Translations under genes and position numbers: made by a program
NCBI GenBank assembly: GCA_030592575.1
Contig: JAUVIV010000003.1
Location: 1-56,100 of the forward strand
Reading direction: 5' to 3'
Source: a bacterium
Lineage (GTDB): Bacteria; Hydrothermota; UBA3073; JACQXS01
Length of the DNA: 56,100 bases
In this document: positions 5,555-44,670 of the stretch, piece after piece
How the letters are laid out: each line of letters begins with the position of its first letter
Position numbering within the stretch: the first letter of the stretch is position 1
The notes under the pieces: model-generated
Databases searched by the model: none
What the model saw: only the letters and a program-made list of their open reading frames with translations
What the model was told of the DNA's origin: nothing

Positions 5555-5772
5555 ATTTTAATGTTGAGTTGACGCAAATAGTTGTTCTATCTATTTGAGA
5601 TTCTTCACGGAGTTTATCCTGAGGCGAGAATTGAGATTCTTCACTTCGTTCAGAATGACAAGCGAAGGGCTCGGTGTGACAGGGTGGAAATTGTTCAGGG
5701 TGACATTTACCGAAGGGCTCAAAATGACAGAGAGGGAAGAAATGATTATTTATGCCACGCCGAGATTAAAAT
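5555..5772. mobile_element. MITE-like composite repeat (copy 1) with imperfect ~29-bp terminal inverted repeats and nested GTCATTCTGA-type palindromes
   Basis: Ends ATTTTAATGTTGAGTTGACGCAAATAGTT and GATTATTTATGCCACGCCGAGATTAAAAT are shared with 40507-40683; inner 5597-5730 matches 10160-10293 (reverse strand). Confidence 0.75.
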
Positions 5773-5776
5773 CATA

Positions 5777-7981
5777 TTAGAATAAACTTGCCCCGAAAAA
5801 GAATTTTTTCTTTATTTCCGGGAAAATAACAATCTCTGCCTTTTCTATATTGGCTTTTTCTTTTGCAATTTCAATAGCTCGAAGTAACCCGCCAATTTCA
5901 TCTGTCAATCCAATTTTTTTCGCATGAGTGCCGCTCCATATTCTCCCTTGAGCAATTGAATCTACTTTAGCTTTATCAAGTCCTCTTCCTTCTGCTACTT
6001 CGGTAATGAACCAATCATAATACCATTCAATCTCTTGTTCAAATTTTTCCTGCTCCTCTTCGGTAAAATGTCGCAGGGTAGAAAAATAATCAGCATGTTT
6101 GCCTCGCTTAACCGTGTCCCAGCCAATCCCAAATTTATCATAAAGTCCTGTTAATACCGGGTGCACACCAAATACTCCTATTGAGCCAGTGAGTGTAAAT
6201 CTGTCAGCAAGGATTGTATCGGCAAAGCAGGAAATTTCATATCCTCCCGAAGCGGCAACATTACTCATTGAAACAATAACGGGCTTTTCTTTGGCTACTC
6301 TTTTTAATTCTTTGGCGATTATATCAGATGCAAAAGCACTTCCCCCACCAGAATTTACTCTGAGTACGAGTGCACGGATAGATTTATCTTTTCTTATTTT
6401 ATTGAGGAGTTTCGATATTGTTTCAGAACCCATGTATTTGCCTCCGATAATTGGGATTGGATTATATCCACTTTTCCCCGTTGCTATTGAACCTTCTGCT
6501 ATAAGAAGAGCAATTTTGGGTTTATCCTCTTTCCATGTTCTTGTGAGCTCTTTGTTCCCAAGGAATTTTTCCATTGATTCTTGCTTTGAGGATTTACCGG
6601 AAATTTCTTTCAATATATCATCTATTTCGTATTGATAAGCAACTGTATCTATAAGCCCAAAATTCAGAGCTTTTTCGGAGTTAAAAAATACCTCATTGTT
6701 TATAAGTTCAAGAAGTGAGTCAGGTTTCATATTTCTGGATTGTGCAATTTCTCGAACCATAGGTTCCCATATATCATCAAGATAGCACTCAAGTTGTTCG
6801 CGGTCTTCTTCGGACATACTTTCTCGTTCCAACATTTCTCGTGCAGATTTATATTTACCTATATGTGCAATGTCGGTTTCAATTCCAAGTTTTTCCAGAG
6901 TACCTTTTAGATACATTTTATTTGCTGCAAGTCCGGGCAAAACTATACTTCCAAGATGAGGTAAAATTATGTAATCTGCAACGGAAGAAAGATAATAACT
7001 ACTCATAGCATATCCTTCTGAAAAAGTGATAATTTTTTTGCCTGCTTTTTTGATTTTCAGGAGTTCTTGCCTGAGTTCTTCCGCCTGAGCTATGCCAAGA
7101 CTGTAAGGTTTAAGATGAATGAATAAACATTTTACATCTTCTCTTTCTTTTATTACTTCAAGATCGCTCAAAAGGTTGTAAAATCGGGGGGTACTGCTTT
7201 TCTTAAATCCAAGATATTCACTCTTTTCCTGCATTTCAGGGTAAGAACCTTTAAGCGTGAGCTTAACGATTTTCTTTTTCTTATGCATAAAAGTAGGATA
7301 TTGTTCACGAGATAGAATCAAAGATGCTTTTTCGTGCTCAAATTTGGCGTCAGTATTTCCTCCTATTTTCAAATTCCCAAAAGATATATCTGTTCCAAAA
7401 TTTACCTTTAAGTTGTCATTCTGGGTGTTAGTGAAGTTTCCTTTTTGACTCACAGAAAGAGAAAAAATAACTCCATCCAAAGGTTCAACTCCAATTCCAT
7501 ATATTAAATTTTCAAGACTGTCTTTTGCAAATAATGCATCGCAAAAAATTGTAACTCTGTCTGTGCCGGGTTTCAAACTTATACCTCCTCGCATAACAGG
7601 TTTCTCTTCAATAGGAATTACCAACCCAAAACTTACAAATTTCTTTGGTCTGAATATTCCTCCAAGTTTATGTGTAGGAGCGATTCGTGAATTACTCTTA
7701 CCAAAATTGTAGTTATAGCCAAGCCAAAAGGATTTTCCAATATTCATACTGCTTCCTAAAGTAAAAGATGGTTTCTCTTTTTGTTTTAGCTCGATACCAA
7801 ATGCTGAATTTTGAGAAGATAGACCGATTAAATGCCAGTCATTCTCAAATAAATATATACATTCATATCCCTGATTTATCCCAAGTCCGGCCGGATTCAT
7901 AAATAAAGCTTCTCCTCTTCTTGCAGTTGATACGGAACTTCCATCAAAACTTAAGAATATACAAATTATAAGTTGTAGCAT
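5777..7981 (-). CDS. sppA: Signal peptide peptidase SppA (67K type) with an N-terminal beta-barrel-like extension
   Basis: Two S49 domains: GKYKSA (Lys), RVNSGGGS, AASGGY (Ser), TGSIGV, QGRIWSG; first ~230 aa has NPAGL and alternating beta strands. Confidence 0.9.
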   Translation of the reverse strand: MLQLIICIFLSFDGSSVSTARRGEALFMNPAGLGINQGYECIYLFENDWHLIGLSSQNSAFGIELKQKEKPSFTLGSSMNIGKSFWLGYNYNFGKSNSRIAPTHKLGGIFRPKKFVSFGLVIPIEEKPVMRGGISLKPGTDRVTIFCDALFAKDSLENLIYGIGVEPLDGVIFSLSVSQKGNFTNTQNDNLKVNFGTDISFGNLKIGGNTDAKFEHEKASLILSREQYPTFMHKKKKIVKLTLKGSYPEMQEKSEYLGFKKSSTPRFYNLLSDLEVIKEREDVKCLFIHLKPYSLGIAQAEELRQELLKIKKAGKKIITFSEGYAMSSYYLSSVADYIILPHLGSIVLPGLAANKMYLKGTLEKLGIETDIAHIGKYKSAREMLERESMSEEDREQLECYLDDIWEPMVREIAQSRNMKPDSLLELINNEVFFNSEKALNFGLIDTVAYQYEIDDILKEISGKSSKQESMEKFLGNKELTRTWKEDKPKIALLIAEGSIATGKSGYNPIPIIGGKYMGSETISKLLNKIRKDKSIRALVLRVNSGGGSAFASDIIAKELKRVAKEKPVIVSMSNVAASGGYEISCFADTILADRFTLTGSIGVFGVHPVLTGLYDKFGIGWDTVKRGKHADYFSTLRHFTEEEQEKFEQEIEWYYDWFITEVAEGRGLDKAKVDSIAQGRIWSGTHAKKIGLTDEIGGLLRAIEIAKEKANIEKAEIVIFPEIKKKFFFGASLF
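7674..7701. repeat. 28-bp GTAG REP-like palindrome inside sppA
   Basis: GTAGGAGCGATTCGTGAATTACTCTTAC; translated as KSNSRIAPT. Confidence 0.75.
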
Positions 7982-8068
7982 TTATCCTCCTTTTTCCGAT
8001 TTATATCAAGCAAGACAAAAAAGTCAAGAGGAAACAGAGAAAGTAATTAAGTTGAAATAATCCTGAAT

Positions 8069-8352
8069 CACGAAAACACGAAAAGCATTGGCACACAGAT
8101 TTGCACAGATTTGAAAGATTAACACAGAAAAAACAATAAACACGAACTTATCACGAACACCTTTGAACCCTACACAAACAAAGATTTTTCTTTTCTCTGC
8201 GTTCTTTGCGTTTCTGCGGTGATTATCTTGTCTTGTACAAATCTGCGATTATCTGCGTCCATCTGCGGTTGAAAAGTCTTCTCATTTTATAAATTTTCTT
8301 TGTGTCCTTTATGATTCATTTTTTATCTCTTTATCTGTGTTTATCCGTGGTT
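8069..8352. repeat. Intergenic array of degenerate 8-10-bp repeats arranged as inverted arms
   Basis: Left arm CACGAAAACACGAAAA, CACAGATTTGCACAGATT; right arm ATCTGCGATTATCTGCGTCCATCTGCGGTT, ATCTGTGTTTATCCGTGGTT. Confidence 0.7.
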
Positions 8353-8376
8353 AAAAATATATTAAGAGGGCAGGAA

Positions 8377-17570: not shown

Positions 17571-19538
17571 ATGAAATATTATAATAAATTAATTTTTTGC
17601 TTTATCATTGGATTATTTTTACTTCTTGGTTGTGCTTCCAAAGATGACCAATGGATTCGTCCTTTACCAAAGCGAATTATAACTCAAGAGCAGTTACCTA
17701 ATGCGAATGCTGTCTTTCTATTAGATGAAGAAAGTTTTAAAGTTATTCCACAAGAGGAAGAATTCGGTTTATTTGGTAGTTTTACCGGACTTCATACTTT
17801 TGAACTTAAAACGGTTATTGTTACAATTTTGAACAAACAGGGACTTCGTTATGCATCGTGGGAAACTCCTTGGTATTATGTTGACCCTGAGGATAAATTT
17901 GGTGGTATAATTGAAATTAAAGGAAGAGTCTTGAAACCAAATGGTGAAATAGTTCTTCTCAAACCTGAAAATATTTATGAAGTTGATATTACGAAATATC
18001 TCAAAAAAAAGCATATTGCGTTTCCTGGAGTAGAGCCAGGTTGTGTGATACAATTACAATATATTATACAACATCGTTGGCGAGCAAAGTCCGCAAGTAT
18101 TCGTTATCTTCAATACGATGATCCCGTACTTCATTCTCACTATTATATTACTTTACCTACTAAATGGGAACCACGATATAATGCTTTGCCAGTGGGGTAT
18201 TTAGAAGAACCTGATATAGAGCAGGTTGCAAAAAGTTATGGAGCAGGGAATACTTATCACTGGTATAAAAGGAATATTCCGGAAATTGAATATGAACCTT
18301 TTATGCCTTCCTTAACTGATTTGATTCCTCGGGTAACCTTTTCACTTTACAAAATTGAAGGGCAACACTCACGAAACACGAGTAATTGGGAAAATATTGG
18401 GAAATGGTTTTACGAAGCAATACAGAATAAGATGAACCCAAGTGGAAAAATTAAAGAATTAGCAAAAGATTTAACGAAAGATGAGAAAGATATAAGGGTA
18501 AAAATAAAAAACATTTTTTACTGGATTCAAAGTAATTATAATGTCGGTATTGATAATACATGGGTATTTCAAAAACCTGACGAGACTATTGATGAAGGCA
18601 AAGGTACAAGTGGTGATATAGCTTGCTTACTTATTTCTATGTTAAAAGCCAGTGATATTCAGGTAGAGCCAGTACTTATAAGTACAAAAGAGAATGGTAA
18701 AGTTGACCAAGAAGTTCCCACTTCAGTATGGTTCAACCGTATTATTGTACGTATTCCTTGTGAAGACAGTTCATTTATCTGGCTTGATCCTGCTGCAAAA
18801 GTTGGGGACATTAATGTTTTACCTTATGAGTCTCAAGGTGTGGATGCATTTATTCTATCAAAAGATAGTAGCCATTTTGAAAAAACACCTATTGCTGGAC
18901 CTGAAGATAATGCGCATATTTGTGAGATTGAGGTATCTTTGAAGGAAGATGGCTCAGCTGCTATTTCTTACGATATTACTTTTGAAGGTGAAATTGAGCG
19001 GGGAAAAAGAATTGAATATACAACTTTAAAGCGTACGGAATGGGAGGTTGAGGCTGCTAAGCTATGCGAAAAGGCAGTATTAAAAGATTATTCTATTCCT
19101 GATCCTGATAGTCTTGGAAAAACTTTTAAAGTGAAAGCTGATTTTGATATGCGAAATTTTGCTGTACGAGCAGACACAATGCTTTTTTTCTCTCCGTTTT
19201 CTTTAGTTCCTTCAAAGCAGTTATTTCCAAAAACTTCTCGTATTCATCCGGTAGTTTTCGATTATAAATTAATCAAACGAGATAACATAAATGTTACTAT
19301 CCCCAAAAAATACAAAATAGTGAAAATACCTACTGATTTTACTCTTCAATCTCCACATGGTAGGGTTACTTTTAAGTATCAGATGAATGGAAAATATGTT
19401 GTTCGTTGTGAACGTGAAGTTATACTTGATAAGTTAAATGTTTCAGTTAATGAATACGAAAAGTTACGTGATTTTTACACAAAACTTTGTGAAAAAGAAA
19501 TGGATAAAATTATCTTATCAAAAATAATCAAACGATAG
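17571..19538 (+). CDS. DUF3857/transglutaminase-like lipoprotein, catalytically degenerate
   Basis: SD AAGGAG; lipobox LLGC; GTSGD and FNRII replace the Cys and His motifs; WLDP retained. Confidence 0.85.
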   Translation: MKYYNKLIFCFIIGLFLLLGCASKDDQWIRPLPKRIITQEQLPNANAVFLLDEESFKVIPQEEEFGLFGSFTGLHTFELKTVIVTILNKQGLRYASWETPWYYVDPEDKFGGIIEIKGRVLKPNGEIVLLKPENIYEVDITKYLKKKHIAFPGVEPGCVIQLQYIIQHRWRAKSASIRYLQYDDPVLHSHYYITLPTKWEPRYNALPVGYLEEPDIEQVAKSYGAGNTYHWYKRNIPEIEYEPFMPSLTDLIPRVTFSLYKIEGQHSRNTSNWENIGKWFYEAIQNKMNPSGKIKELAKDLTKDEKDIRVKIKNIFYWIQSNYNVGIDNTWVFQKPDETIDEGKGTSGDIACLLISMLKASDIQVEPVLISTKENGKVDQEVPTSVWFNRIIVRIPCEDSSFIWLDPAAKVGDINVLPYESQGVDAFILSKDSSHFEKTPIAGPEDNAHICEIEVSLKEDGSAAISYDITFEGEIERGKRIEYTTLKRTEWEVEAAKLCEKAVLKDYSIPDPDSLGKTFKVKADFDMRNFAVRADTMLFFSPFSLVPSKQLFPKTSRIHPVVFDYKLIKRDNINVTIPKKYKIVKIPTDFTLQSPHGRVTFKYQMNGKYVVRCEREVILDKLNVSVNEYEKLRDFYTKLCEKEMDKIILSKIIKR

Positions 19539-19562
19539 AGGCAAAAAATAGAGAGTCTACAG

Positions 19563-19590
19563 GTAGGGGCGTTTAATTAAATGCCCCTAC
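19563..19590. repeat. Intergenic 28-bp GTAG REP palindrome
   Basis: GTAGGGGCGTTTAATTAAATGCCCCTAC, near-perfect inverted repeat just after the stop at 19538. Confidence 0.85.
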
Positions 19591-19768
19591 ATTCAATTTC
19601 AGGATAAGAAAATTTTCAATAGAATATTCTAATCTTTCACGAAAATTTATTTGCTTTTTAAAAAATCTGGAAGAGAAGAAAGATGTGCATTTTAAAATAG
19701 GAGCTATCCTACCCTTCTGTTTTTGTCAATAAAAATCACAGAAGAATTATTCCTTTCACAAAAAATGT

Positions 19769-19796
19769 TTGACACAGAAGCACGAGGAAGTATAAT
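19769..19796 (+). promoter_or_regulatory. Consensus sigma70 promoter of the DUF502 gene
   Basis: TTGACA-16 bp-TATAAT, 6 nt before ATG 19803. Confidence 0.7.
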
Positions 19797-19802
19797 AAAA
19801 AT

Positions 19803-20453
19803 ATGAAAAGGAAATTCATTACAGGTATCGTAGCATTGCTTCCAATAGGGCTTACGGTATTTATTATCTGGTTTATGGTTATGAAAATTGGGGGGCTTCT
19901 GGAAGTAGTTTTCAGAAAAATACCCACACTTTCAAATTTACCTTTGCCATTAATTTCGTTTTTTGGTTTTCTAACGCTTGTCTTAATTATTTATATGATT
20001 GGTATCATAACTTCAAGTTATATAGGAAAGCGTATTTTGAAATTTGGAGAGGATATAATTTCAAAAGTTCCTCTTATCCGTATAATTTATACATCTGTAA
20101 GGAAATTTACGAATGCTGTATTCATAGATAAATCGGCATTTGAAAAAGCAGTGGTTATTGAATATCCAAGAAAAGGAATTTATACTATGGGATTTTTGAC
20201 AAACGAATCCAGCTGGGAAATTGATGGAAAAGGAGAAAATGTAAATGTATTTATCCCGACATCGCCAAACCCAACTTCAGGATATTACATAATTGTTCCA
20301 AGAGTGGAGATAAGAGAAACAGATTTGTCTATTGATGGTGCATTAAGAACCATCATTTCGGGGGGAGTAATATTACCGAGAAATAGGAAGTTAACAAAAT
20401 TGAAAGAGGAGGCAGATAATGAAGGAAGAGAAAAAAGAGATTCGCAAAATTAG
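19803..20453 (+). CDS. DUF502 family membrane protein
   Basis: FITG..LLPI, VPLIRIIY, IEYPRKG, FIPTSPNPTSG, IISGG. Confidence 0.92.
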   Translation: MKRKFITGIVALLPIGLTVFIIWFMVMKIGGLLEVVFRKIPTLSNLPLPLISFFGFLTLVLIIYMIGIITSSYIGKRILKFGEDIISKVPLIRIIYTSVRKFTNAVFIDKSAFEKAVVIEYPRKGIYTMGFLTNESSWEIDGKGENVNVFIPTSPNPTSGYYIIVPRVEIRETDLSIDGALRTIISGGVILPRNRKLTKLKEEADNEGREKRDSQN

Positions 20454-20607
20454 ATTAAAATCAAAGAATTGGACATTTATTCTTGTGGGGTTATTATTTA
20501 TTGGAATCGGATATTTATCCTTAAGTAAAGGTTCTTTGACTTTAGCTCCGGTGCTTTTGGTAACGGGGTATTGTGTTTTAATTCCGATAGGGATAATTTT
20601 AAAATAG
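20419..20607 (+). CDS. Small two-TM membrane protein (DUF3098-like)
   Basis: SD GAGGAGG; 'KNW..GY..SLTLAPVLLVTGY..IPIGI'. Confidence 0.7.
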   Translation: MKEEKKEIRKIRLKSKNWTFILVGLLFIGIGYLSLSKGSLTLAPVLLVTGYCVLIPIGIILK

Positions 20608-20609
20608 TA

Positions 20610-22055
20610 CTAATAGATATTTGAATTAAAGCATACGAATTTTAACTGAGTCATTTCCTGGATAGCGTACTTTACGCCTTCTCTTCCGATTCCGCTTTCT
20701 TTTACTCCACCATAAGGAATATGGTCAACTCTATAAGTCGGTATGTCGTTAATTATAATTCCGCCTACTTCCAAGTTTTTAGATGCATAAAGAGCTTTTT
20801 TGACATCATTAGTATAAACTCCTGCATTTAATCCGTATTTAGAATTATTAACTTTTTTAATTACTTGTTCCCAGTCCTCAAATCCCATAATTGATACAAC
20901 AGGAGCAAACATTTCCCGAGCTACTACTTTCATTTCAGGTGTTACATTGGTGAGTACGGTAGGTTTGAACATAGAGTCCTTATGGCTGTTGCCAATCAAG
21001 ACCTTAGCTCCTTCCGAAATTGCTTTATCTATCCATTGTTTTGTGCGATTGGCTTCTTGTTTTGTAATCATTGGACCTATATCCGTATCTTCATCCAATG
21101 GATTTCCTGATTTTAATTCTGAAACTGTTTTCAAAAATTGCTTGATAAATTGGTCTTTTATGTTTTGATGGACGTAAATTCGTTGAATAGATATGCATAC
21201 TTGTCCGGAATAAGCAAAGCTTCCGAAAACACATCGCTCAACAATTTTTTGTAGGGATACCCCTATATCTTTATCAATAATTACAGGAGAGTTACTACCT
21301 AGTTCAAGTGTAATTCGTTTAAGTCCTGCTCTTTCTGTAATTCCGAGCCCAACGGATGCACTGCCGGTAAATGTGATTTTAGAAATTCTTGTGTCTCGGA
21401 CTATAGCGTCTCCGATTGTGGAACCTGTTCCTGTTAGGATGTTCAAAACTCCTTGCGGGAGTCCGGCTTCTATCATAATCTCTCCTAATTTAATTGCAGT
21501 TATAGGAGTATATGTGGATGGTTTGAGCACGATAGTATTTCCTGATGCAATTGCTGGAGCTATTTTATGAGCAACTAAGTTTAATGGAAAATTAAATGGA
21601 GTAATCGCAGCTATAATTCCAAGTGGTTCACGGAAAGTAAATCCGATTCTATTTTCTCCTTTGGCTGATGCATCCATAGGTATTGTCTCGCCATAAAGTC
21701 TTTTGGCTTCTTCAGATGCGAATTTGAATGTTTCGCTTGCACGGTCAACTTCGCCTTTTGCTAATTTTATTGGCTTTCCTGATTCTAATGTAATAGTTTG
21801 AGCAAGTTCTTCTTTTCTTTCTTTTATAATATCTGAAGTGTGTTCAAGGATTAGAGCCCGTTTATGAGCAGGAAAGTTTTTGGTAATTTTAAAAGCTTCT
21901 TGAGCACTTTGGATGGCATTATCTACTTGTTGTCTGGTAGCTTTCGGAATTGTGCCAAGTAGTTCCTGGTTGTAAGGGTTTCTAACTTGTAGTGACGATT
22001 CGCGAATCGCTCTTACCCATTCACCATTTATAAGTAATTTATATTTTTTAGGCAT
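20610..22055 (-). CDS. Aldehyde dehydrogenase family protein
   Basis: ITPFNFP, LKPS, FTGS, LELG, GQVC (catalytic Cys), EMFAP, PYGGVKESGIGREG. Confidence 0.95.
   Translation of the reverse strand: MPKKYKLLINGEWVRAIRESSLQVRNPYNQELLGTIPKATRQQVDNAIQSAQEAFKITKNFPAHKRALILEHTSDIIKERKEELAQTITLESGKPIKLAKGEVDRASETFKFASEEAKRLYGETIPMDASAKGENRIGFTFREPLGIIAAITPFNFPLNLVAHKIAPAIASGNTIVLKPSTYTPITAIKLGEIMIEAGLPQGVLNILTGTGSTIGDAIVRDTRISKITFTGSASVGLGITERAGLKRITLELGSNSPVIIDKDIGVSLQKIVERCVFGSFAYSGQVCISIQRIYVHQNIKDQFIKQFLKTVSELKSGNPLDEDTDIGPMITKQEANRTKQWIDKAISEGAKVLIGNSHKDSMFKPTVLTNVTPEMKVVAREMFAPVVSIMGFEDWEQVIKKVNNSKYGLNAGVYTNDVKKALYASKNLEVGGIIINDIPTYRVDHIPYGGVKESGIGREGVKYAIQEMTQLKFVCFNSNIY
21989..22016. repeat. 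28-bp GTAG REP-like palindrome inside ALDH
   Basis: GTAGTGACGATTCGCGAATCGCTCTTAC; translated as VRAIRESSL. Confidence 0.75.
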
Positions 22056-43050: not shown

Positions 43051-44670
43051 TTAATACATTCTTCTTATTATTAGTTCGGCAATGAGTAAAAGAAGCACAA
43101 ATATGAAAAACCATTTTTTGATGCTTATTTGCTCTCGTTGATGTTTAAGTTCGAGTGATGAAGAAACGAGAGAGTTGCTCAGATTTACTGCAAATTTTGT
43201 TATTTCGGGGATTTCATAAACTCCGGGGGACATAGGTGTGAAGCGTATGTAGATTCCATCAGATTCAACTTTTGGTGTAAGTGTTTTTGTTTGTATGGAA
43301 AATTCATTGGTTGTCTTTATGCATTTGTAGGACTTAGATTTTGGCACTTTGAATCTCACAGGTTCACCAACGAGAAAGTTGTATTGCTCTATAGGTTTGC
43401 CTGCGAGATAATAAGCTGTACGATGCATCAAAGGAACGAAAAGCGGTGAAAGGACAAAGTCTCCTGCTTCTCGGCTCAATGGAAATGAAAAAACCAATGT
43501 TTGTGGAGCAGGTTCAATAATTGCAGGAGTTCCGTCAGAGAATCTTGCAATTATTTTGCTTTGGGCAATCGTTAAGGTTGCCTCTACATTTTCTCTTTGA
43601 GTAAATTTTACTTTTTTGAGTTCTGATAGGTGTTTAAATCCACTAAATATTGGATGGCTCTCAAGAATTTTATCAAGCGTGAGAAATCCTGCTATTTTCT
43701 GAGAGTTTGCAGGCAAAGAAAGAGTCTTTGTTGAGAATTTTTGTTGTGAGTTGAAGAAGGTTATTACATCGTATTGAGATGGAGCTATAAGTTTTTGACT
43801 GATTTTTATATTAATTCTTGAATTGGTTTCGGATGGAGAAAGAGCATTTTTCAAGAAATACGTATCTTTAGAATTACCAACTAATAAAACTTTCAATTTA
43901 GGAGAAGGTACATAAACGAAATATCTTGTATTATCAAGAGAGAGAGCATCTTGTTCTTCTATTTTTACTGAGCCCGCACAAGCTTCGGAAAACATAGGGA
44001 AAATTGCTGTGCTTGTTGAATATGGGGGAATTGTAAGTTGTAAACTCAAAGTTGTGAGTTGTGAGTTAAAAGTTATGAGTTTTTGTCTCTCTTGCCCTGT
44101 ATGATTTGTTACAAAAGCGAGGAAGGAGGACTTAAAAGCAATTGAGTCTATTGAAAAATTATCTTTCTTTCCCGTAAGTTCTATGAGTTTTGCTTTTCCA
44201 ATAAGAGTATCTGGTAATTTTCCGACTTTAGTGATTATATAATCCACATTTTTGGTCGGCAAAGAGAATTTCTGATATTTACATTTAGATGGATAAGACT
44301 CTCCCGATGCGAGTAATATTTTTGTGTCCTTAAGTTTATCGGTTGTTTTGATTGCTCTCTCAAAAAGAGTACGAGCTCCATCTAAAGCTTGCATATCCCA
44401 AGAGTCATCAAGGATTGCGATTTGTTGCTTGCGAAAAATAGATGGATTTGCGAATCCAAGAATTAAAAAAAATATGGCGAGAGTTCGTAATACAAGGAGT
44501 ATAATGTCCTTGAGTTTTCTAAGTGAGCGTTGTCCGTGTTCGGCAGATTTAAGAAGTGAGATTGATGGAAACCATATTTGCTTTAATCGGTGTCGATGCC
44601 ATAAATGGATTAAGAAAGGAATTGGTAATGCCAGAAGCCCAAATAAGAAAAGTGGAGAAAGGAAATTCAT
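43051..44670 (-). CDS. BatA-domain membrane protein
   Basis: N-terminal 'FLSPLFL..PFLIHL..FPS..LLVLR..FANP'; C-terminal 'LLLIAE'. Confidence 0.85.
   Translation of the reverse strand: MNFLSPLFLFGLLALPIPFLIHLWHRHRLKQIWFPSISLLKSAEHGQRSLRKLKDIILLVLRTLAIFFLILGFANPSIFRKQQIAILDDSWDMQALDGARTLFERAIKTTDKLKDTKILLASGESYPSKCKYQKFSLPTKNVDYIITKVGKLPDTLIGKAKLIELTGKKDNFSIDSIAFKSSFLAFVTNHTGQERQKLITFNSQLTTLSLQLTIPPYSTSTAIFPMFSEACAGSVKIEEQDALSLDNTRYFVYVPSPKLKVLLVGNSKDTYFLKNALSPSETNSRINIKISQKLIAPSQYDVITFFNSQQKFSTKTLSLPANSQKIAGFLTLDKILESHPIFSGFKHLSELKKVKFTQRENVEATLTIAQSKIIARFSDGTPAIIEPAPQTLVFSFPLSREAGDFVLSPLFVPLMHRTAYYLAGKPIEQYNFLVGEPVRFKVPKSKSYKCIKTTNEFSIQTKTLTPKVESDGIYIRFTPMSPGVYEIPEITKFAVNLSNSLVSSSLELKHQREQISIKKWFFIFVLLLLIAELIIRRMY

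Follow-up and report, generated by a model that had tools for sequence, protein, structure and literature searches.

GTAG-type repetitive extragenic palindrome (REP) elements were reportedly described together with RAYT (TnpA-REP) genes by Nunvar and co-workers in 2010. In the parts of three later articles covered here, most REPs are reported to be intergenic, and GTAG REPs are also recorded inside open reading frames (ORFs), most of them in Opitutus terrae, with loops being discussed (Di Nocera 2013, PMC3733652); different REP classes are shown flanking orthologous RAYT genes, a situation distinct from exchanges at slots in other genes (Nunvar 2013, PMC3686654); and the mechanisms of REP dissemination are considered poorly understood and the pathway unknown, with GTAG thought to guide cleavage (Corneloup 2021, PMC8266576). 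Here we analyse 28-bp palindromes of this type in a window of 56,100 nucleotides (the whole stretch of DNA under study; contig JAUVIV010000003.1 of assembly GCA_030592575.1) from an uncultivated bacterium of the Hydrothermota, where four of them are read in frame within protein-coding genes. Alignments with orthologues show that the REP at such in-frame sites stands in place of host bases. The best explanation, which we consider probable, is that copies of the REP family replace host bases, that their sites are re-used as slots, and that each new copy overwrites its target at a single stroke; this one-step coupling of gain with loss is something we infer and did not observe.

The focal genome (G000) comprises 2.49 Mb in 157 contigs with 34.6% G+C, and the window is its contig C135. 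A previous sequence-only reading had placed 28-bp palindromes at 7674, 9111, 9416, 21989 and 19563, and a partial one in batA; all were present as described. The copies in the window and their host genes are as follows:

7674..7701, minus strand: 28-bp REP GTAGGAGCGATTCGTGAATTACTCTTAC, in frame in the S49 (SppA-like) peptidase gene; peptide GKSNSRIAPT
9111..9138, minus strand: 28-bp REP GTAGGGGCAATTCGTGAATTGCCCTTAT, in frame in the TonB-dependent receptor gene; peptide IRAIHELPLH
9416..9443, minus strand: 28-bp REP GTAGGAGCGGGTTGCAAATTGTTCCTAC, in frame in the same receptor gene as the 9111 copy; peptide RRNNLQPAPT
19563..19590, no strand assigned: 28-bp REP GTAGGGGCGTTTAATTAAATGCCCCTAC, intergenic, a nearly perfect palindrome of the same family
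21989..22016, minus strand: 28-bp REP GTAGTGACGATTCGCGAATCGCTCTTAC, occupying codons 14-23 of the aldehyde dehydrogenase gene in frame; peptide VRAIRESSLQ
43563..43587, minus strand: partial REP that has the tail and inner stem but lacks the GTAG head, read in frame within the batA-like gene; peptide VEATLTIAQ
5777..7981, minus strand: S49 peptidase gene, host of the 7674 copy (Pfam PF01343, E 2.9e-74)
8377..10338, minus strand: TonB-dependent receptor gene with Plug and beta-barrel domains, host of the 9111 and 9416 copies (Pfam PF07715 and PF00593)
20610..22055, minus strand: aldehyde dehydrogenase (ALDH) gene, host of the 21989 copy (Pfam PF00171, E 4.3e-165)
43051..44670, minus strand: BatA-domain protein gene, host of the partial copy (Pfam PF07584, BatA N-terminal domain, E 3.9e-19)

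Between 9 and 11 of the 11 outer pairs of the window 28-mers are Watson-Crick or G-T pairs. The four intragenic copies are imperfect palindromes, and their GTAG-headed strand is the complement of the coding strand in all three minus-strand genes. Codon phases and peptides agree with the previous reading that these four are translated in two frames: the first REP base is codon base 2 in GKSNSRIAPT and RRNNLQPAPT, and codon base 1 in IRAIHELPLH and VRAIRESSLQ. The inner sequence of the intergenic copy at 19563 has stops in the frames that are open in the other copies; no alignable counterpart of that copy was found in the related genomes G001 or G002.

Codon alignment of each window locus with its nearest orthologues, the check put forward with the sequence-only reading, gave a net difference of +28 or +30 nt at none of them. 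In the ALDH gene, 10 codons lie between INGxW (TGG) and VRNP (GTT AGA AAC CCT) in G000 and 8 in G002 (82% amino acid identity), G031, and G005, i.e. 30 nt stand where orthologues have 24, a net gain of 6 nt. Among the 44 database homologues parsed by a regular expression (of 120 listed), this spacing is 8 in 42 and 10 in two, namely the query itself and P0002 (83% identity), which has a REP-coded 10-residue loop (GAIREPSLQ). One comparator, G005, carries CTAC at the position of the REP head in its empty site. At receptor 9111, G000 has 12 residues and G001, G002, and G003 have 8 (net +12 nt), and the empty sites of G001 and G002 carry GTAG, on the plus strand, exactly at the 5' end of the REP. 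At peptidase 7674, G000 is 5 residues (net +15 nt) longer than G001, G002, and 11 of 13 relatives; G006 matches G000 in length, and G029 falls in between. The partial copy in batA lies in a segment that is 15 nt (5 residues) longer in G000 and G001 than in G002, G003, G006, and G008 (4 of 5 relatives), the inserts of G000 and G001 differing in sequence. Receptor 9416 is older, because G001 and G002 have a REP, better preserved than that of G000, at the same codons; the net difference is therefore 0 within the genus, and +18 nt relative to G003, a member of the next genus with 50% amino acid identity and a weak alignment. The ancestral residues are not kept at the window REP sites. Logan contigs of three cold-seep metagenome runs, one of which is probably the source, showed no allele without a REP, and the alignment of one X3 Logan contig ends inside the 7674 REP.

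Over three species, with sites taken from G000, G001, and G002, a total of 17 comparisons could be made in which a REP in one genome is matched by nothing REP-like in the other. The additional sites came from G001 and G002 DNA obtained by searches and from the sequence on either side of every REP that matches the strict pattern in G001 (13) and G002 (29), compared with the whole G000 genome. Automated net lengths were off at two sites where another indel or the gene start fell within the compared segment (14 for the peptidase; 9 for ALDH, against G005 only), and codon alignments were used there instead. The net lengths (REP-bearing minus empty allele) are distributed as follows:

Net 0: L158:2233
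Net +3: L185/L192
Net +6: ALDH
Net +9: C68:6581, a REP without the CTAC tail
Net +12 (four sites): receptor 9111; G002 C28:9435; L175; L191 (27-nt REP)
Net +15 (four sites): peptidase; batA; C87:5467; L174
Net +18 (four sites): C68:5328; L166; L182; receptor 9416 compared with G003
Net +27: L176:2004, a 29-nt REP in a nitrilase-like gene (from the protein alignment)

All 17 values are multiples of three, with a median of +15, and none falls at +28 to +30. Net lengths of 0 to +27 imply that 2-28 host bases were lost per site, most often 10-16. Flanking direct repeats of 2 nt, of the kind left by target duplication, occur at 5 of 106 copies, compared with 9.2% of random 28-mers. On these data, clean addition with target duplication is excluded at every site examined, and the additive insertion with target-site duplication that marks miniature inverted-repeat transposable elements and classical transposons is not what is seen here. 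The outcomes that the sequence-only reading had named as fatal to it (additive insertion with target duplication, or identical ancestral residues) were thus not encountered, and its proposal that insertion is coupled with loss or overwriting of host bases gains support from net values of 0 to +27, although coupling within a single event goes beyond what the alignments record.

The direction of change is set by outgroups at five sites: ALDH (3 relatives and 42 of the 44 parsed homologues), peptidase (11/13), receptor 9111 (3/3), batA (4/5), and a G002-specific REP in a receptor gene. The last of these (G002 C28:9435) is the youngest case, a perfect 29-nt REP absent from both G001, whose locus is 94% identical, and G000. 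Its net length is +12, the loop length of G003 equals that of the empty alleles, and both empty alleles (G001 and G000) have GTAG at the junction. Seven REPs with no more than one mismatch to the consensus ends have net lengths of +12 to +18. Because these seven and C28:9435 are already at that length, the alignments indicate that the reduced net length is present early, and that some later trimming may add to it. Among the 17 empty sites, two have GTAG exactly at the 5' boundary of the REP and a third has it at a distance of 4 nt; by our own arithmetic, chance would place it at an exact position in about 0.3% of cases.

Several observations weigh against replacement in one event. Neither GTAG nor CTAC stands at the boundary in 13 of the 17 empty sites. 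With comparators that have diverged by 5-25%, later in-frame indels could contribute to the differences, and no allele pair differing by a single event was seen among the comparisons. About a quarter of the 54 intragenic copies of G000 had an alignable counterpart, and sites without one made up 6 of 24 in one comparison set and 14 of 37 G001/G002 sites in another. C87:6525, C94:8543, C94:42656, C94:43582, and C38:11667 fall outside the stretches matched by G001/G002 DNA, C38:18365 was not alignable, and a DNA search with the host gene on C62, which holds two REPs, gave no match in G001 or G002. The single clean intergenic case of presence and absence (L197) shows a difference of 46 nt, larger than a REP, with its polarity not set. 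None of the six Y1 genes of G000, which is a 157-contig assembly, is flanked by the 28-bp REP family. Finally, P0006, an ALDH homologue from another organism (73% identity), is longer in this N-terminal loop by 10 residues (SARGSSASGR) that are purely additive; palindromic inserts belonging to other families may land here repeatedly.

Further points on that side are those expected if a REP were first added in frame (28 nt plus 2, or as a 27-nt form) and host codons were later removed by independent in-frame deletions. Such a two-step history would accommodate the variation of net values from 0 to +27, the smallest net lengths at the most degenerate REPs (ALDH +6, L185 +3, L158 0), where some later trimming fits, and the nearly additive 29-nt REP in the nitrilase-like gene, while truncated or partial REPs (C68:6581, batA, and the G002 allele of C94:13264) indicate that deletions do happen at such sites. 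It is nonetheless rather unlikely, given that none of the 17 comparisons falls at +28 to +30, that net lengths of +12 to +18 are seen even in the seven REPs that have decayed least, and that the perfect G002-specific REP differs by +12 from a 94% identical locus. In addition, it is the REP that is intact and only host bases that are gone, an outcome that random deletions would not favour.

Replacement with re-use of sites also draws on what happens to a REP site once it exists. Genomes that are 89-97% identical can differ in the palindrome found at a given position, and a site, once made, persists as a slot in which the hairpin is exchanged for other members of the family, REP overwriting REP. 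At C17:17044 a GGTTCGCGAACC type palindrome stands opposite a AAATTATAATCT type in G001 and G002, the latter with 15 nt fewer in the flanks, and further two-species slots with differing palindromes are C110:24824 versus L173, C8 versus L184, and C37 versus L188. The intergenic slot C31:3649 / L170 / L189 has three inner stems in three species. One glycosyltransferase gene (locus identity of 93% for G001 versus G002) contains two slots whose palindromes vary from genome to genome: slot 1 encodes SKGNSQYTPT in G000, GIPTCRDT in G001, and FVGASRRLAPT in G002, and slot 2 TQIKNNSQTSLA in G000, VGAGLNPAPT in G001, and VGESESSHLSN in G002. Decayed copies with G to A changes in their ends occur in G000 on C34, C119, and C155.

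Outside genes, one intergenic slot is occupied by a 28-nt GTAG REP in G001 but by a palindrome of 50 nt with a GTGG head in G002, a difference of 25 nt that is not a multiple of three; the restriction to multiples of three is a filter that acts inside genes only. Seven intergenic loci were considered for presence and absence: besides L197, these comprise a swap (L199), two loci with a REP in both species (L179 and L181), two at which nothing colinear spanned the REP (L193 and L178), and one that gave no match (L196). REP dimers were also observed in ORFs. On C58 of G000 two adjacent REPs correspond to one in G002 L171 (33-nt difference), and two adjacent REPs are present in G001 L099 and G002 L102, where G000 C68:~5840-5900 has an AT-enriched, decayed version of both.

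Homologous recombination could in principle produce the same slot differences, if short gene segments carrying another REP were imported from other strains without any REP-specific writing. Slots that differ between 89-97% identical genomes while their flanks stay similar would fit such imports, as would identical REPs in distant families of the phylum. The changes, though, end at the palindrome boundaries, the flanks being colinear up to the GTAG/CTAC ends, and recombination leaves unexplained how a first copy arose with a net length below 28; we regard it as a poor candidate, less probable than addition followed by deletion.

The 28-bp palindromes are members of a GTAG-headed REP family of 27-30 nt hairpin repeats. 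A relaxed scan (up to 4 mismatches to the GTAGGGGC/GCCCCTAC ends and at least 4 of 5 inner pairs) picked up 107 copies in the genome (2.49 Mb), compared with 1 after shuffling, and a strict pattern gave 37 matches in G000 and 0 in the control; of the matches to a stricter regular expression, 55/61 are exactly 28 nt long. With 27-30 nt and 9-14 paired positions, the units fall within the 20-40 bp of hairpin-forming REPs. The conserved part is the 8-nt outer stem, GTAGGGGC/GCCCCTAC; changes in the inner stem compensate one another and divide it into sub-families that include GTTTAATTAAAC, GTTAAATTTAAC, ACGATGCATCGT, GATTCGCGAATC, and GGTTCGCGAACC. In intragenic copies the head is conserved at 92% (G), 92% (T), 98% (A), and 79% (G), compared with 88-93% in intergenic copies, in keeping with a GT[AG]G head.

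About half of the copies are read in frame in loops of ordinary proteins. By location, stop-free frames of at least 250 amino acids (aa) contain 54 of the 107 and frames below 120 aa contain 46, with 7 between, whereas 2143 of 3000 random 28-mers lie in frames of at least 250 aa; with 54/107 in long open frames, the usual description of REPs as mostly extragenic does not hold here. Intragenic copies are more degenerate (mean of 2.9 mismatches versus 1.6 in intergenic copies), and the 54 are split 34, 20, and 0 over the three frames, the third being unused because it would read the TAG inside GTAG. Almost all copies of two sub-families with stop codons in their inner sequence are intergenic. 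Searched with the strict pattern, 23 of 41 related genomes show the same REP design, reversed-pattern controls giving 0-1 matches. Identical 28-mers (inner GTATTGCAATAC and GTTCAATTGAAC types) were noted across different families of the phylum (G025, G028, G034, G037, and G040), which points to conservation over a very long time or to horizontal transfer of REP variants. A 30-nt unit (T+28+A), prompted by a T before 70% of intragenic copies, was considered and rejected, as flanking bases are complementary at 28 of 107 copies and at 27% of random 28-mers.

That the palindromes form in place, by a within-strand template switch correcting a quasi-palindrome that resembles half a REP with nothing imported, is very improbable: at C94:50927 and L158:2233 the sequence of the other species does share part of one arm, but 107 copies have the same 8-nt head and tail, and the polarised empty sites (ALDH, peptidase, receptor) are unlike a REP arm, the best score being 9-11 mismatches of 16.

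G000 also has six PF01797 (Y1_Tnp) matches above the curated cut-off, i.e. Y1/HUH (RAYT-like) genes, and among the 41 related genomes, which are kin and not independent, 9 of the 10 without a Y1 match are also without a REP match, and 22 of the 31 with Y1 have REPs. At C152:10845-11481 a Y1 (RAYT-like) gene of 178 aa lies between two direct copies of a ~55-nt compound hairpin that is unrelated to the 28-bp REP. About 135 nt downstream of this gene, a 28-bp REP is in frame near the start of an ORF, which from its N-terminal sequence, with no search, we take to be asparagine-synthase-like. Another Y1 gene, on C144, itself contains an in-frame 28-bp palindrome of a different kind, GTAAGCAGGGGCAATTGCCCCTGCCTAC (C144:8347-8374).

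Other repeats adjoin the REP-bearing genes of the window. A ~94-nt repeat forms an inverted, 97% identical pair (5590-5690 and 10200-10293) that brackets the peptidase and receptor genes; BLAST matches to this repeat number about 40 in G000 and are many in G003. The copy at 10200-10293 is in frame just past the receptor signal peptide, where G000 has ~47 residues absent from G001 and G002. In the peptidase-receptor spacer (8066-8240), short repeats of another family match dozens of places in G001/G002 at 80-97% identity, and contig depth over this segment is raised in metagenome runs.

Under replacement with slot re-use, a new copy would overwrite its target in a single event, with the first junction at a GTAG-like tetranucleotide and the second at a variable distance downstream, after which selection would keep those products in which the frame is intact and the loop length tolerable. 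A copy-over anchored at GTAG fits because there is no duplication, GTAG is kept in two empty sites, the second junction varies, and partial REPs and REP-for-REP swaps occur. Two routes may be envisaged: cut-and-replace by a RAYT-like Y1 enzyme on single-stranded DNA, with chemistry of the IS200/IS605 type (described in the part of PMC8266576 covered), or a replication template switch onto another REP via the conserved ends. Present data do not separate the two. More tentatively, and with the odds in our view against it, there may be a dedicated replacement reaction in which the Y1 enzyme or a REP-templated strand switch joins the hairpin at a GTAG-like site and discards roughly 10-16 downstream bases, slots being continually rewritten.

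Copies in conserved genes are of value in that they give exact sequences before and after, which intergenic copies rarely do. They set constraints for any mechanism: no target duplication, loss of host bases (usually 10-16), GTAG sometimes at the junction, and sites that are re-used. They also present loops of housekeeping enzymes that are rewritten by a repeat family, with part of their sequence set by the repeat. If a dedicated replacement reaction does exist, filled and empty gene sites would record the pathway of REP dissemination and a natural activity for short-patch overwriting of DNA.

Among known systems, template-switch (quasi-palindrome) mutagenesis and short-patch gene conversion between dispersed repeats lay a templated tract over existing bases, with variable ends and use of short homologies. 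Processes of this kind would explain the REP-for-REP swaps, via the conserved 8-nt ends; we know of no case in which they serve as the way a REP family colonises new sites. Rickettsia palindromic elements (RPEs), with lengths from about 100 nt upwards, are regarded as additive insertions that contribute residues, whereas the units here are 27-30 nt, have net lengths of 0-27 nt, and replace host codons. Common to both are palindromic repeats in frame in genes that probably still make working proteins (for RPEs, in the part of PMC3733652 covered). IS200/IS605 peel and paste, as set out in the covered part of PMC8266576, resembles the present case in having a Y1 HUH enzyme, a hairpin substrate, a guiding tetranucleotide beside the hairpin, and no target duplication, and two of the empty sites here have a GTAG at the junction; unlike here, where downstream host bases are lost in varying amount, those elements add their full length beside the target.

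The closest relatives are the GTAG REP/RAYT systems. A term search of PMC3733652 gave no occurrence of 'duplication', 'empty site', 'replaced', or 'multiple of three', and no comparison of filled with empty sites was seen in the portion covered; literature searches, with term searches within PMC3733652, PMC8266576, and PMC3686654, yielded no published analysis of REP replacement versus addition, which is not proof that none exists. Replacement and slot re-use were not found described, whereas the element itself is of a known kind, a REP, and in-frame REPs have already been published. It departs from those systems in that half of the copies are intragenic here, compared with mostly intergenic copies (PMC3733652, same portion), and in that no RAYT gene was found flanked by the 28-bp REP. 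It shares with them short GTAG-headed palindromes in many copies, sub-families with compensating stem changes, and Y1/HUH genes in the same genome.

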